NCBI GenBank assembly: GCA_041395105.1
Contig: JAWLBB010000002.1
Span: forward strand, 298,104-322,103
Direction of reading: 5' to 3'
From: Opitutaceae bacterium
GTDB lineage: Bacteria > Verrucomicrobiota > Verrucomicrobiia > Opitutales > Opitutaceae
DNA length: 24,000 bases
Of this stretch, positions 13,495 through 18,254 are shown piece by piece (positions within the stretch are counted from its first letter, which is position 1; each line of letters starts with the position of its first letter). Below the pieces are notes generated by a model. The model did no database searches, was not told where the DNA came from, and was given only the letters and a program-made list of their open reading frames with translations. A program made the position numbers and the translations under genes.

Positions 13495-14313
13495 CTACGA
13501 CATCAGGCTGGCATCCTTCGGTCCGTCGTGTTGATGGTCTGCCCTCCGGCGCCCGCCGACCGTCTTCCCTTCGATCTCCCGTTTCATTCGGACGACTTTC
13601 TGGTGAAGATCCGCGGCCAGCTTCTTCCGATCCTCTTCCCGCATCACCGGCTCCCCGAAACACACTTCCGCCCGCGAGTAGTCAACCCGCCCCATCAGCG
13701 TCAGCAGGTGCGGCACCAGGGTCATCTCTCCGTGGTAACAGAGAGTGTCACTTGCTTCAGCGCCGAACGCTTCATAGTGGATGGCACAGGGCGTGATCGC
13801 CCAGCCCGTTCGAATGGCCGGCTCGAGCAATGCGGTTCGGAAGGGAAGGACCGTTGATCCATCGGTGGTCGTTCCCTCGAGAAACACCGTCACCGGCAAT
13901 CCCGCCTCAACCACTTCCTGAAATGCAACCCCTTTGGATGAAACCTCCGACCGCCTGCGCCGATCAATGAAGACGGTTCCCGCCCAGCGGGCAAAGGCCC
14001 CGAAGAGCGGCCAACCCGCCACCTCGTTCTTGGCGAGAAACACCTGGGGCCGGATGGAAGATAGGACCAGCACATCAAGGTAACTCAGGTGATTTGAGGT
14101 GATCAACCCCGGCACCGGTTCCGTGCCCCTGACCACCACCTCGATGTCCAGGAGGGCCAGGGTCCGCCGACTCCAGCGTTGCAGCCAGTTTGCGCGGTCC
14201 CAAAGTGAACGCCGGTTGCCCGGGACAAGAAAATGAGACAGGGTGGTTCCAAGGAAGATCAGAAGCATACCTGCCAACCGCTTGAGGAACTTGAGTGGAG
14301 CGAACCGACTCAT
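13495..14313 (-). CDS. PlsC-family lysophospholipid/lyso-aminolipid O-acyltransferase (OlsA-like, 272 aa)
   Basis: HX4D motif in ITSNHLSYLDV, and the EGT motif in VFLEGTTTDG. The ATG overlaps the upstream stop by 4 nt (ATGA), indicating translational coupling with the OlsB-like gene. Confidence 0.8.
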   Translation of the reverse strand: MSRFAPLKFLKRLAGMLLIFLGTTLSHFLVPGNRRSLWDRANWLQRWSRRTLALLDIEVVVRGTEPVPGLITSNHLSYLDVLVLSSIRPQVFLAKNEVAGWPLFGAFARWAGTVFIDRRRRSEVSSKGVAFQEVVEAGLPVTVFLEGTTTDGSTVLPFRTALLEPAIRTGWAITPCAIHYEAFGAEASDTLCYHGEMTLVPHLLTLMGRVDYSRAEVCFGEPVMREEDRKKLAADLHQKVVRMKREIEGKTVGGRRRADHQHDGPKDASLMS

Positions 14314-15062
14314 CGGAAATATCGGGCGGGGATCTGCCGCACATCCATCAAGGTGAGAAAATCAATCGTTCCAAATTGCGGATCGAGGGCCGGGGGGCCG
14401 CAAACCTTCGCTCCCAGCAGAAGATAGGTATGCATCAGGCGCGGGATTTTCGGTGCCGGCCCATCGGATACGCCTCCCTCACAGGCCCAACCCGGTTGGG
14501 GTACCGTTCGGAACTCCTCAGCAGCCAGCATGTCGTCGGGAAGACTTTCATAGAGTGCCCTGCCCTCGGCCGGATCCCGGGATGACAACGAACTGCATCC
14601 AATCAGGTAGCGACAGTCATTGAGGACCGCATAGCGGGCTATTCCCCGCCAAAGCAGCCCCAGCACGGCCAGGTTGCGGTGGTCACGATCCACACAGGCC
14701 CGCCCCAACTCCAATATCTCACTCCGGTGCGTCTCAAAAGGTGTAAAATCGAATTCCTGTTCGCTGTAAAATCCGTGGTTGGCCCGGGCGGTCAAACCCG
14801 TCTGCAAACGGTAGGTTCCGATCACCCTGTCCGTGTCGGTCGACTCCACGATCAGATGGTCGCAGACCGGATCAAAGCGATCCCGGTCCAGACCAATGCT
14901 CGCCGATTCCGCCAATCCCTCCCTCAATTCCAGGTTGAACACCTCAAAGCGAAGCCTCTGCGTCCGTTCAAGGGCAGCCTCATCCCCGGCCAGATAGGCA
15001 CGGTAGCGACCTTGGGGTTCCGGAGGCACGAAGCCCGGCCGGGTATGCAGCATGAATGCCAT
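14310..15062 (-). CDS. OlsB-like GNAT-fold N-acyltransferase (amino-acid N-acyl synthase, 250 aa)
   Basis: Start re-set to ATG 15062 (MAFMLHT), which removes overlap with the upstream gene and leaves a 16-nt gap. RLRFEVFNLELREG and LDRDRFDPVCDHLIVES...VIGTYRLQT match the OlsB/N-acyl-amino-acid synthase pattern (DxDxFDxxCDHLxV). Confidence 0.7.
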   Translation of the reverse strand: MAFMLHTRPGFVPPEPQGRYRAYLAGDEAALERTQRLRFEVFNLELREGLAESASIGLDRDRFDPVCDHLIVESTDTDRVIGTYRLQTGLTARANHGFYSEQEFDFTPFETHRSEILELGRACVDRDHRNLAVLGLLWRGIARYAVLNDCRYLIGCSSLSSRDPAEGRALYESLPDDMLAAEEFRTVPQPGWACEGGVSDGPAPKIPRLMHTYLLLGAKVCGPPALDPQFGTIDFLTLMDVRQIPARYFR

Positions 15063-15078
15063 GGCAGACGGGTTTACT

Positions 15079-17004: not shown

Positions 17005-17016
17005 TCCGGATGAGAC

Positions 17017-17742
17017 TCAGCTCCTCAGGGCGAGCGACGCGTTCACCATGGCCATCGGCTGTTCAATCCAGGGCTGAGGCTCATAACGCATCGACACCCT
17101 CGTCTGTCCCAGATCAATCCGGACCACGCTGTGGGTGCAGGCATCTGGACGGCACATCAGAACGGACTCGGCCGGCCGGTCGCTCGAATGCTCATGGTGA
17201 TACCTTTCCAGTCGATTGATTCCGCCGCCGGAGGACCTGACGGAAGACTCGAACAACCCAATCCGGTAACGCTCAACCGCAGCGGTCTGCCAGGATGAAG
17301 ACGTCACCGGAGGAAACAAGCCCTCGGTTTCCGTCGACCGAAGACGGACTCCGTCCCAGTTCAGAAGCAGGGACCCGACCCGATCGATGCCGAACAGTCG
17401 AAAAGGCGGATAAGGCCTCATGTCCATCCGGCTCATTTCCTTCGCCACGTCGCCGCAGCCCCCGCTGTCGGACAGGTTGTGGACCAGATGACCACGCGAC
17501 GGCCGATCCCCGGGGGCGACCCGGCACCCGGTCGGGTAATGATTGAGCAGCCCCAGAGTCAGACCGAACTCATTGACCGAAATCCAGGTACCGCCCTGTT
17601 CCCCGTCGGTCGGCGCCAGGAAACGCACCCCTCCTCGAATCCTCTCCTCCGGCCCGGTCGCCGGCCGCCTCGTTCTCATTTCGTCTCGGTTGAAGAAGAC
17701 AACGTATCCACTTTCTGAATACTCCCAGCTTACCGTGCACAT
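17017..17742 (-). CDS. NRDE-family protein (TANGO2/DUF833 homolog, 241 aa)
   Basis: N-terminal MCT (putative Ntn-type Cys2) and the eponymous FFNRDE motif at residues about 16-21. Overlaps the upstream DinB gene by 13 nt. Confidence 0.8.
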   Translation of the reverse strand: MCTVSWEYSESGYVVFFNRDEMRTRRPATGPEERIRGGVRFLAPTDGEQGGTWISVNEFGLTLGLLNHYPTGCRVAPGDRPSRGHLVHNLSDSGGCGDVAKEMSRMDMRPYPPFRLFGIDRVGSLLLNWDGVRLRSTETEGLFPPVTSSSWQTAAVERYRIGLFESSVRSSGGGINRLERYHHEHSSDRPAESVLMCRPDACTHSVVRIDLGQTRVSMRYEPQPWIEQPMAMVNASLALRS

Positions 17743-18254
17743 GGACGCAGGCGCTCGCGATGCCGTAGCGTGGAGGGAGCCACCCCGTAATCCCCATCCA
17801 CCTCCACCCCGACCAGACGGCAGATGATTGCGGTCAGGGCCTGATGGTGAACCGTGTGGCCGAGGAGAAAATCCAGTTCCCTCAGCCTGGATGACGGCAT
17901 CCAGCGTGCGTCGTTGCCGAGTCCCGATCCCTCCTGCCGGACGAAGACCGATCCGTCCTCCTCTTCGACCGCGAGCCGGGCCAGGCGGTCACAGATCTCC
18001 CGTGAAAGGGCGATTGCGGCCGCACGATCGGTCTCGATCCGATGGTCACGTCTTCGGGACTCATAATCAATCCGCCCGGCAGCCAGTCCCTCGAGGAACG
18101 CCAGGTAATGGTCGAGATCGTGCCGAAAGTGCCCTCCCAGCGTTCCCCTGAAGGCCAGTTCGACGGGTTCGCAGTAGACAGCATCGTCAATCCGGCCAAG
18201 AAGGTCCACTCCCCGGCCAAGGATAGAGATGATTTCGTCCACTTTGATCTTCAT
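17730..18254 (-). CDS. DinB-family four-helix-bundle metalloprotein (174 aa)
   Basis: His-rich motifs GGHFRHDLDHY and LLGHTVHHQAL match the DinB/YfiT-like metal triad pattern. First gene of the minus-strand operon. Confidence 0.65.
   Translation of the reverse strand: MKIKVDEIISILGRGVDLLGRIDDAVYCEPVELAFRGTLGGHFRHDLDHYLAFLEGLAAGRIDYESRRRDHRIETDRAAAIALSREICDRLARLAVEEEDGSVFVRQEGSGLGNDARWMPSSRLRELDFLLGHTVHHQALTAIICRLVGVEVDGDYGVAPSTLRHRERLRPCAR

Follow-up and report, generated by a model that had tools for sequence, protein, structure and literature searches.

The locus considered here raises the question of why two genes that resemble those of the ornithine-lipid pathway should be joined so closely to three genes that have no place in that pathway as it has been described. 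The locus occupies positions 13495-18254 on the minus strand of a 24,000-nucleotide (nt) stretch of Opitutaceae DNA (about 60% G+C; hereafter the window), where five open reading frames (ORFs) were confirmed in the order g1-g2-g3-g4-g5. These encode a DinB-superfamily protein (g1), an NRDE/TANGO2-family protein (g2), a DedA/VTT membrane domain fused to an ATP-grasp ligase (g3), an OlsB-like N-acyltransferase (g4), and an OlsA/PlsC-like O-acyltransferase (g5). The five-gene set is a conserved module and not a chance neighbourhood. The reading of this module that is preferred here, which we would put at somewhat short of an even chance, is that the five genes form one operon that makes and modifies an acyloxyacyl amino-acid membrane lipid of the ornithine-lipid type.

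The conservation of the module was established from related genomes. A scan for relatives of g3, with one genome per species, matched at least 600 stretches, at least 589 of which encode a g3 relative, and the best 80 of these were taken as loci. The six-frame ORFs of the loci were searched with the window proteins, and the counts that follow were made on the 43 loci with at least 4 kb of upstream and 3 kb of downstream sequence. The g3 loci come from KSB1, Calditrichota, Acidobacteriota, Gemmatimonadota, Desulfobacterota, Verrucomicrobiota, Planctomycetota, Rhodothermaceae and others, amounting to more than eight phyla. A g1 gene is present in 32 of the 43 loci, g2 in 25, and one or the other in 35, while an OlsB-like gene is found in 26, an OlsA-like gene in 24, an OlsF-like gene in 3, and either OlsB or OlsF in 29. 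For an OlsB or OlsF gene within 8 kb, the observed 29/43 compares with about 0.3/43 expected by chance, according to our own estimate, which supposes one or two OlsB/OlsF genes per genome of about 4 Mb. The sequence-only reading of the window had named the co-occurrence of the five genes in related genomes as a point to be checked, and the genes do co-occur across phyla.

The order of the genes varies among these loci. The most common order is OlsB-OlsA-g1-g2-g3 (BA123), observed in 14 loci, and the orders 123, BA13, BA3, 13F and F'3 are also found; the window itself has the order 123BA. The locus of a 69%-identical homologue (L001) has the same five-gene order as the window, and the complete BA123 set is present in Engelhardtia mirabilis Pla133. 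The order OlsB-OlsA-DinB-TANGO2-g3 also occurs in a Chloroflexota metagenome-assembled genome (MAG) and in one other genome. Look-ups anchored on g2 show an adjoining OlsBA or OlsF in six of seven cases, three of them without g3; two Pseudomonadales-type genomes, for example, carry DinB-TANGO2-OlsB-OlsA without g3. In a Thiogranum MAG (L087) the order is OlsF-DinB-TANGO2, followed by an Asp_Arg_Hydrox gene (PF05118, LpxO/OlsC/OlsD family; 5744-6523), and the position of this hydroxylase gene after the TANGO2-like gene fits a hydroxylated product of the ornithine-lipid type. Furthermore, the ATP-grasp part of g3 is encoded on its own in several lineages, including L091 (DinB-TANGO2-[stand-alone ATP-grasp]-OlsF), Vibrio aquimaris THAF100 (VTT - ATP-grasp - DinB - TANGO2 - YHS - MauE-like - OlsF, all on the same strand, with the ATP-grasp split from DedA), Salinivibrio (VTT - ATP-grasp - DinB-like - NRDE), and Variovorax, where it lies immediately upstream of an OlsB-like gene. 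The module can thus be divided into three sub-modules. Sub-module A is either OlsBA or OlsF, sub-module B consists of the ATP-grasp, DedA and in most cases a lipase domain, whether fused or split, and sub-module C is DinB with TANGO2; they have been seen in the combinations ABC, AB, AC, BC and B alone.

An all-against-all clustering of the ORFs from the 80 loci yielded no sixth conserved partner, as no other family occurs in more than 11 loci; the larger clusters obtained were taken, by their coordinates, as shadow ORFs inside g3. In its gammaproteobacterial versions the cluster contains, or is directly followed by, genes for a YHS-domain protein and a small membrane protein (L097, 8258-9162; L085, 9444-10348; L086, 7606-8486). 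The small protein is weakly MauE-like in V. aquimaris and has no Pfam match in L085 and L086, and the two genes are possibly a lineage-specific, metal-related addition.

The identities of the window proteins were probed using profile and structure searches. The family assignments proposed for the five proteins all held up, those of g2, g3, g4 and g5 through Pfam and that of g1 through its homologues; g1 lacks a DinB match of its own, and g4 and g5 score under the OlsB and OlsA equivalog cut-offs. g4 matches PF13444 (Acetyltransf_5, GNAT) at 9.5e-30 (103.7 bits against a cut-off of 22.4), and its best NCBIfam models are both OlsB (2e-37 and 2e-34, over nearly the full model length), so that this GNAT protein, for which a clustering with non-lipid acetyltransferases would have told against the original proposal, matches OlsB best. 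The scores fall short of the OlsB equivalog scores in both cases (129.4 bits against 350; 119.3 against 320). GNAT N-acyltransferases from Streptomyces, Ralstonia, Sinorhizobium, Paracoccus and Acinetobacter share 32-40% identity with g4 over its full length, and known producers of ornithine lipids are found among these genera. g5 matches PF01553 at 3.4e-21, and its best NCBIfam model is OlsA (1.5e-39, over nearly the full model length), again under the equivalog score (135.7 bits against a cut-off of 300). The translation of g5 contains an HX4D motif (H75-D80, NHLSYLD) and an EGTT motif. The pairing of g4 with the O-acyltransferase g5 recurs as OlsB-OlsA pairs in 24-26 of the 43 related loci, and the earlier description of the two as an OlsB-type and PlsC/OlsA-type pair is upheld. 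From homology, g4 is predicted to form a lyso-aminolipid from 3-hydroxyacyl-acyl carrier protein and an amino acid.

The third protein, g3, matches PF09335 (VTT, 9.5e-15) and PF08443 (RimK ATP-grasp, 9.1e-7; 29.1 bits against a cut-off of 21), which agrees with its description as a DedA::ATP-grasp fusion. In order, its parts are an N-terminal transmembrane anchor, the DedA/VTT domain, a conserved hydrophobic hairpin, and the ATP-grasp ligase. Weak NCBIfam matches are to cyanophycin synthetase and to UptA, the latter being the best match of the DedA domain (3.5e-11) and not an equivalog (43.5 bits against a cut-off of 250). The residues E98, D99, D131, R179, P182, G183 and R185 of the DedA part are invariant across homologues, and a lipid scrambling or flipping function is suggested for this domain. 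The hairpin has its own invariant residues (R275, W279, E280, F281, W282, Y288 and P290). In the ATP-grasp domain K374, E414, R527, D529, E548 and N550 are invariant among 15 sequences from several phyla, and all of these except R527 we take to be the ATP/Mg-binding set by analogy with Ddl. When an AlphaFold2 (AF2) model of g3 (predicted local distance difference test score, pLDDT, 76) was compared with the PDB using Foldseek, the ATP-grasp domains of cyanophycin synthetases 1/2 ranked first (3.5e-9), followed by GshF and many D-Ala-D-Ala ligases, with a probability of 1.00. A sequence search ranks the relatives alike, with CphA closest at 2e-4. In all of these nearest folds an amino-acid or peptide carboxylate is phosphorylated and then linked to an amine. 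It is argued that the first helix of g3 has its N-terminus on the inside and that the ATP-grasp domain is cytoplasmic.

The description of g3 as a two-part fusion requires one correction, as most of its homologues carry a further domain that the window protein does not have. More than 1600 g3 homologues were found, most of them about 870 amino acids (aa) long with an additional N-terminal alpha/beta-hydrolase domain of roughly 250 aa, which is present in 68 of 80 homologues and missing from 12. The window g3 and an 85%-identical relative lack it and retain an arginine-rich N-terminus together with the first hydrophobic helix; set against P0003 and most homologues, this looks like a clean, lineage-specific domain loss. 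By sequence profile the domain is closest to polyhydroxybutyrate depolymerase, the membrane-anchored phospholipase PlaF (6i8w, 2.3e-22) and ABHD6, and the positive-inside N-terminus together with the PlaF-like anchor suggests that this lipase domain would be periplasmic. Full-length homologues would thus have a catalytic domain at either side of the membrane, with a lipid-moving domain connecting the two. The idea that the TANGO2-like gene replaces the hydrolase domain missing from the window g3 was rejected, as both co-occur in 22 of the 43 loci.

The DedA and ATP-grasp parts of g3 are about 50% identical across phyla. The ATP-grasp module by itself is represented by about 1000 cluster representatives at E<=1e-30, in three length classes that correspond to hydrolase+DedA+grasp, DedA+grasp, and the stand-alone ligase. 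The stand-alone protein of L091 (340 aa) is 43% identical to residues 275-591 of g3 and keeps the hairpin without DedA. On plasmid 1 of Paracoccus denitrificans PD1222 (L095, 5869-9595), the ATP-grasp, the alpha/beta hydrolase and VTT are encoded by three separate neighbouring genes, and this retention of the parts side by side speaks for the fused domains working together. Beside the P. denitrificans trio lies a type I methionine aminopeptidase gene. In Komagataeibacter (L092, 4019-6951) and Variovorax (L096, 4032-6966) the stand-alone ATP-grasp gene adjoins a gene for an iron-containing redox enzyme (PF14518, haem-oxygenase-like), and the Komagataeibacter locus also holds an S-adenosylmethionine methyltransferase gene, which makes a second, different context for the ligase.

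The second protein, g2, bears the database name 'NRDE family protein' and matches PF05742 (TANGO2) at 1.1e-7 (32.8 bits against a gathering score of 22.6) over its N-terminal half only. It begins with MCTVSW, so that a cysteine is at position 2, and its NRDE motif consists of N18-R19-D20-E21. All 38 homologues with a placeable start begin with MCT..W, with NRDE about 15 residues on; the family shows no variation at W6, N18, R19, D20 and E21, and conservation of C2 reaches at least 90%. A phmmer search of g2 alone against PDB sequences gave only noise, while a profile built from 28 g2 homologues matches human TANGO2 (8sv7) by sequence at 2.2e-4. An AF2 model of g2 (pLDDT 93) places human TANGO2 first in a Foldseek search of the PDB (9bwa/8sv7; 8.6e-11 to 2.4e-10, TM-score 0.59-0.69), followed by CV2077, a bacterial NRDE protein, and by isopenicillin-N acyltransferase, bile-salt hydrolases and penicillin V acylases. 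The model thus has an alpha-beta-beta-alpha fold that is closest to TANGO2, and the earlier naming of g2 as an NRDE/TANGO2 homologue is supported by the cysteine, the motif and the Pfam match alike. Human TANGO2 has been proposed to be a cysteine N-terminal-nucleophile (Cys-Ntn) hydrolase of fatty-acid derivatives, with its substrate and activity not established (PMC13044924), and it has also been reported to bind acyl-CoA (PMC11867700).

The first protein, g1, matches no Pfam family at E<=0.1 and no NCBIfam model when searched alone, and its membership in the DinB superfamily, as had been claimed, emerges through its homologues. Of 23 such proteins, 18 match PF05163 (DinB; best 2.5e-12) and 17 match PF12867, the Vibrio homologue scores 29 bits against a DinB cut-off of 23, and a profile of the family matches the DinB-like PDB protein 3dka (E=0.004 over 137 positions). 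The histidines H42, H45, H133, H136 and H137 are invariant among the homologues and are candidate metal-site residues; g1 is probably a metal-binding partner. The two genes overlap by 13 nt (ATGTGYACNGTRA) in 22 of 33 loci from many phyla and by 1 nt in 5 more (window; L001, L005-L082). The bases of the overlap encode both the M-C-T-V of g2 and a conserved C-terminal Cys-Ala-x-stop of g1, and the conservation of this Cys-Ala presumably follows from the overlap with the g2 start. The conservation of the 13-nt overlap indicates obligate co-translation of g1 and g2, whose products would be expected to form a complex.

Based on these assignments, a sequence of steps can be proposed for the preferred reading. 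In the first step, g4 would N-acylate an amino acid with a 3-hydroxy fatty acid, and g5 would then esterify a second fatty acid onto the g4 product. Next, the ATP-grasp domain of g3, located in the cytoplasm and kept close to the membrane by the hairpin, would phosphorylate the free head-group carboxylate of the lipid or its lyso form and join to it an amine (an amino acid or a taurine-like compound), yielding an amide-capped or dipeptide head group. Amidation of the head group is the most economical reading because acyloxyacyl lipids keep a free alpha-carboxylate and this ATP-grasp branch, which is always membrane-tethered, activates the carboxylates of amino acids or peptides. The fused DedA domain would carry the lipid from one leaflet to the other, as its fusion to the ATP-grasp points to a role in translocating the product. 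The N-terminally anchored, PlaF-like lipase domain, which most relatives have but the window protein lacks, may then act on the lipid from the periplasmic side. Finally, the coupled g1 and g2 proteins may serve as an amidase or transacylase that turns over, proofreads or remodels lipids of this class at their fatty-acyl amide bond. g2 shares its fold and catalytic motif with Cys-Ntn enzymes that split or transfer fatty-acyl amides, and this bond is proposed as its substrate because g2 is linked to the enzymes that make it. The occurrence of the ATP-grasp beside lipid genes even where it is not fused to DedA (L091, Variovorax, V. aquimaris) supports this scheme. An ATP-dependent lengthening of the head group through an amide bond, with flipping afterwards, had been put forward from the sequence alone; it agrees with the evidence from folds and is kept as a hypothesis. 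A more far-reaching version of this scheme is that the bacterial TANGO2/NRDE proteins, together with the obligately co-translated DinB metalloproteins, act as amidases or transacylases of N-acyl amino-acid lipids, and that the hydrolase-DedA-ATP-grasp protein is a tRNA-independent, MprF-like machine that amidates the head-group carboxylate of an aminolipid on the cytoplasmic side, flips the lipid and trims it in the periplasm; we regard this version as a tentative proposal that is, on present evidence, rather unlikely.

Several points weigh against the preferred reading. The lipid chemistry is something that we infer, the first two steps from homology and the rest from fold, domain architecture and gene linkage. 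Because the scores of g4 and g5 lie far under the equivalog cut-offs, these proteins are called OlsB-like and OlsA-like here, and no particular amino acid is assigned to the head group. An OlsB or OlsF gene is missing within 8 kb in 14 of the 43 g3 loci, and the ATP-grasp module is found in other contexts in Azospirillum, Paracoccus and Komagataeibacter; in these cases the substrate of the ATP-grasp may be a different lipid, or the acyltransferase genes may lie outside the locus. For the DedA part of g3, no settled topology came from hydropathy and the positive-inside rule. Furthermore, ATP-grasp enzymes can also activate fatty acids, as happens when acyl-histidine is made in Legionella (PMC11631085), and a part in haem trafficking has been reported for bacterial TANGO2 homologues (PMC10470608).

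Four other explanations were also weighed. An ordinary aminolipid with no new head group could be salvaged or kept in balance by the module, with the lipase and the TANGO2-like amidase degrading aminolipids or toxic lyso-forms, DedA returning the pieces to the inner leaflet, and the ATP-grasp re-forming the N-acyl amide from fatty acid and amino acid via an acyl-phosphate. Such a cycle is unlikely, though it deserves serious consideration: ATP-grasp enzymes can N-acylate amino acids via an acyl-phosphate (PMC11631085), Cys-Ntn relatives of g2 are fatty-acyl amide hydrolases, according to the structure matches and PMC13044924, and DinB/TANGO2 is found with OlsBA in the absence of g3. The combination of a periplasmic lipase, DedA and a cytoplasmic ligase in one protein would also suit a trans-membrane cycle, but the lipase domain is absent from the window g3 and from 12 of 80 homologues, the closest folds of the ATP-grasp are ligases of amino-acid or peptide carboxylates and not fatty-acid-activating enzymes, and the amide-forming step is already supplied by OlsB. 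It is less probable still that g3 acts on some other lipid of the envelope, for example on the head group of a phospholipid or on an intermediate linked to polyprenyl phosphate, and is merely co-regulated with the aminolipid genes under envelope stress or phosphate limitation. The absence of an adjacent OlsB or OlsF gene from one third of the g3 loci would fit this idea, as would the occurrence of the ATP-grasp module alone in Azospirillum and Paracoccus and the choice of the undecaprenyl-phosphate transporter UptA as best NCBIfam match of the DedA domain. This match falls far short of its cut-off, however, the linkage to OlsBA or OlsF survives many rearrangements and involves two non-homologous types of O-acyltransferase, and no other gene family is conserved nearby in more than 11 of the 80 loci.

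The closest folds of the ATP-grasp (CphA, GshF and Ddl) make soluble peptides, and a further explanation is that this domain, perhaps with DinB and TANGO2, produces or tailors a soluble dipeptide or unusual amino acid for use by OlsB, with DedA as a small-molecule transporter. As g4 is no OlsB equivalog, its substrate may be an unusual amino acid. The use of low-molecular-weight thiols by many DinB-fold enzymes also speaks for this explanation. Against a soluble product stand the conserved membrane hairpin, which is always present on the ATP-grasp, even when it is stand-alone, and the usual fusion to DedA and a membrane-anchored, lipase-like domain, which argues for a lipid substrate; we consider a head-group supply of this kind improbable. 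OlsBA alone is enough to make ornithine lipids in known systems (PMC12971839), and the window could in principle hold a plain OlsBA ornithine-lipid operon with three unrelated genes upstream by chance. The conservation data argue strongly against this, as the genes co-occur in more than eight phyla in differing orders, they are coupled by overlaps of 13 and 4 nt, the former kept in 22 of 33 loci, and OlsBA or OlsF is found paired with each sub-module separately; chance adjacency is accordingly very improbable.

The layout of the window itself was read directly on the sequence (Table 1), and the junctions described earlier, a 13-nt overlap, gaps of 12 and 16 nt, and an ATGA overlap, were all recovered. 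The 12-nt gap between g2 and g3 holds with a TTG start for g3; the NCBI model of the identical protein is 638 aa long, which implies a GTG start at 16995 and a gap of 21 nt. The gap of 16 nt lies between g3 and g4, and the ATGA overlap between g4 and g5. The longest ORF of g4 begins at 15326, and the L001 homologue, like the g4 protein listed in Table 1, is 250 aa long. All five genes are on the same strand with short or overlapping junctions, as in a single operon. Promoter and terminator scans of the cluster found no promoter-like site and terminator-like sites at background level only, and an Rfam scan found no regulatory element at the cluster.

Table 1. Positions of the cluster genes, of parts of g1-g3, and of neighbouring features in the 24,000-nt window.
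Feature	Position	Strand	Description or basis
g1	17730..18254	(-)	DinB-superfamily protein, 174 aa, predicted cytoplasmic metal-binding four-helix protein
g2	17017..17742	(-)	NRDE/TANGO2-family protein, 241 aa, predicted Cys-Ntn hydrolase fold
g3	15079..17004	(-)	DedA/VTT::ATP-grasp membrane protein, 641 aa, TTG start
g4	14310..15062	(-)	OlsB-like N-acyltransferase, 250 aa from ATG at 15062
g5	13495..14313	(-)	OlsA/PlsC-like O-acyltransferase, 272 aa
g1 stop/g2 start overlap, 13 nt (ATGTGCACGGTAA)	17730..17742	(-)	Read on sequence
DedA/VTT domain, g3 residues 101-220	16345..16704	(-)	PF09335, 55.6 bits vs 33.9, 115/123 model positions
Hydrophobic hairpin RWEFWPPWVFYPPV... (RWEFWPPW...), g3 residues 275-301	16102..16182	(-)	Travels with the ATP-grasp module
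ATP-grasp ligase domain, g3 about residues 305-600	15205..16092	(-)	Foldseek and sequence matches
Collagen triple-helix repeat ORF	5802-6941	(+)	PF01391, 1.9e-7
MotA/ExbB-family gene and three large ORFs	7257-11725	(-)	MotA/ExbB at 10865-11725
Glycine-zipper protein	11909-12559	(+)	Weak match
DUF4136 protein	12612-13388	(+)	Weak match, under the Pfam cut-off
SNF2-family helicase	18042-20891	(+)	PF00176 and PF00271
tRNA gene	21075-21147	(+)	Rfam, 71.7 bits
Radical SAM protein	21319-22620	(+)	N-terminal SPASM domain

The cluster is flanked by a divergent SNF2-family helicase gene, the longest ORF of which overlaps the 5' end of g1, so that its true start is probably further downstream. Beyond this gene lie a tRNA gene and then a radical SAM gene. 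Just downstream of g5, on the opposite strand, are the DUF4136 and glycine-zipper genes, and a DUF4136 gene is also near the cluster in L086. The MotA/ExbB-family gene is followed by three large ORFs without a Pfam match (520, 355 and 329 aa). The flanking genes of L001 correspond to those of the window, with an SNF2 neighbour and a MotA/ExbB gene followed by 504-aa and 282-aa genes, and MotA/ExbB genes are near the cluster in L085 as well. The collagen triple-helix repeat match in the window is unusual in a bacterium.

Aminolipids rank among the major membrane lipids that contain no phosphorus, and a widespread ATP-grasp that travels with OlsBA or OlsF is a concrete candidate for the ATP-dependent amidation of a head-group carboxylate, as in cerilipin. 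If the proposals made here are true, amide-capped or dipeptide aminolipids would be widespread in Verrucomicrobiota, Acidobacteriota, Gemmatimonadota, Desulfobacterota and Vibrionaceae, and the TANGO2 family would gain its first substrate class backed by conserved gene context. Human TANGO2 is mutated in a severe metabolic disorder, and its function is disputed between haem chaperone, acyl-CoA binder and Cys-Ntn hydrolase. An operon that links TANGO2 homologues to the makers of fatty-acyl-amino-acid amides names a substrate class that can be tested in cultured bacteria (V. aquimaris, Salinivibrio and E. mirabilis). In addition, a DedA domain placed between a periplasmic lipase-like domain and a cytoplasmic ligase would be a rare case in which the cargo of a DedA protein can be deduced from its fusion partners.

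The three genes upstream of g4 had been described as standing outside the known pathway, and the literature agrees. The synthases in the aminolipid reviews of 2024 (PMC11631085) and 2026 (PMC12971839) are only OlsBA, OlsF and OlsHI, and the modifying enzymes are OlsC/D/E/G; DedA, ATP-grasp, TANGO2 and DinB partners are described neither there nor in the OlsH/OlsI paper (PMC12493201). A search of full-text literature likewise found no description of an olsB or ornithine-lipid cluster with TANGO2/NRDE, DinB, VTT/DedA or ATP-grasp genes. While the core OlsBA pathway is known, the conserved accessory module and the link to TANGO2 appear to be undescribed. The OlsB/OlsA ornithine-lipid pathway of the Sinorhizobium meliloti type and its relatives GluB and GlsB/GlsA likewise have an adjacent PF13444 N-acyltransferase and PF01553 O-acyltransferase with HX4D. 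In contrast to these systems, g4 and g5 form a separate subfamily, as judged by scores well under the equivalog cut-offs, and belong to a module of five genes, the other three of which have no counterpart in the pathways described so far. In other lineages the bifunctional aminolipid synthase OlsF (PF19576 and PF13444) takes the place of OlsB and OlsA beside the same accessory genes, whereas the window cluster has the two-gene form.

The chemistry predicted for the ATP-grasp of g3 matches that of cerilipin formation in Gluconobacter cerinus, an ATP-dependent transfer of taurine to the carboxyl group of an ornithine lipid that was assayed in the 1970s and the gene for which is unknown (PMC12971839), in that both would form an amide on a free head-group carboxylate at the expense of ATP. 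A stand-alone ATP-grasp with 34% identity is found in the Acetobacteraceae (Komagataeibacter), where its gene neighbours are different. The G domain of CphA, GshF and D-Ala-D-Ala ligase are the closest folds and sequences to this ATP-grasp, at an identity of only 15-20%; g3 differs in its tether to the membrane and its fusion to DedA, and it lacks all remaining domains of CphA. The DedA transporters UptA and YqjA and the eukaryotic VTT scramblases share the PF09335 domain with its conserved acidic and arginine residues, but the g3 family joins this domain to two enzyme domains, and the window protein joins it to one. g2 shares Cys2, the NRDE motif and PF05742 with human TANGO2 and the bacterial NRDE proteins CV2077 and HtpA, and human TANGO2 is its best structural match at about 16% identity. 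The g2 subfamily differs in its translational coupling to a DinB-like gene and in its linkage with acyltransferases of aminolipid synthesis, whereas the Shewanella homologue HtpA adjoins a metal transporter and is assigned to haem trafficking. A periplasmic hydrolase of the AcvB/VirJ type acts on the product of MprF-type enzymes. MprF (aminoacyl-phosphatidylglycerol synthase) is a cytoplasmic head-group-modifying enzyme fused to a lipid-translocating domain (PMC11980842), a logic like that of g3. The two proteins share no homology, as MprF uses aminoacyl-tRNA, a GNAT-like fold and its own flippase while g3 combines an ATP-grasp with DedA, and the likeness is one of analogy only.

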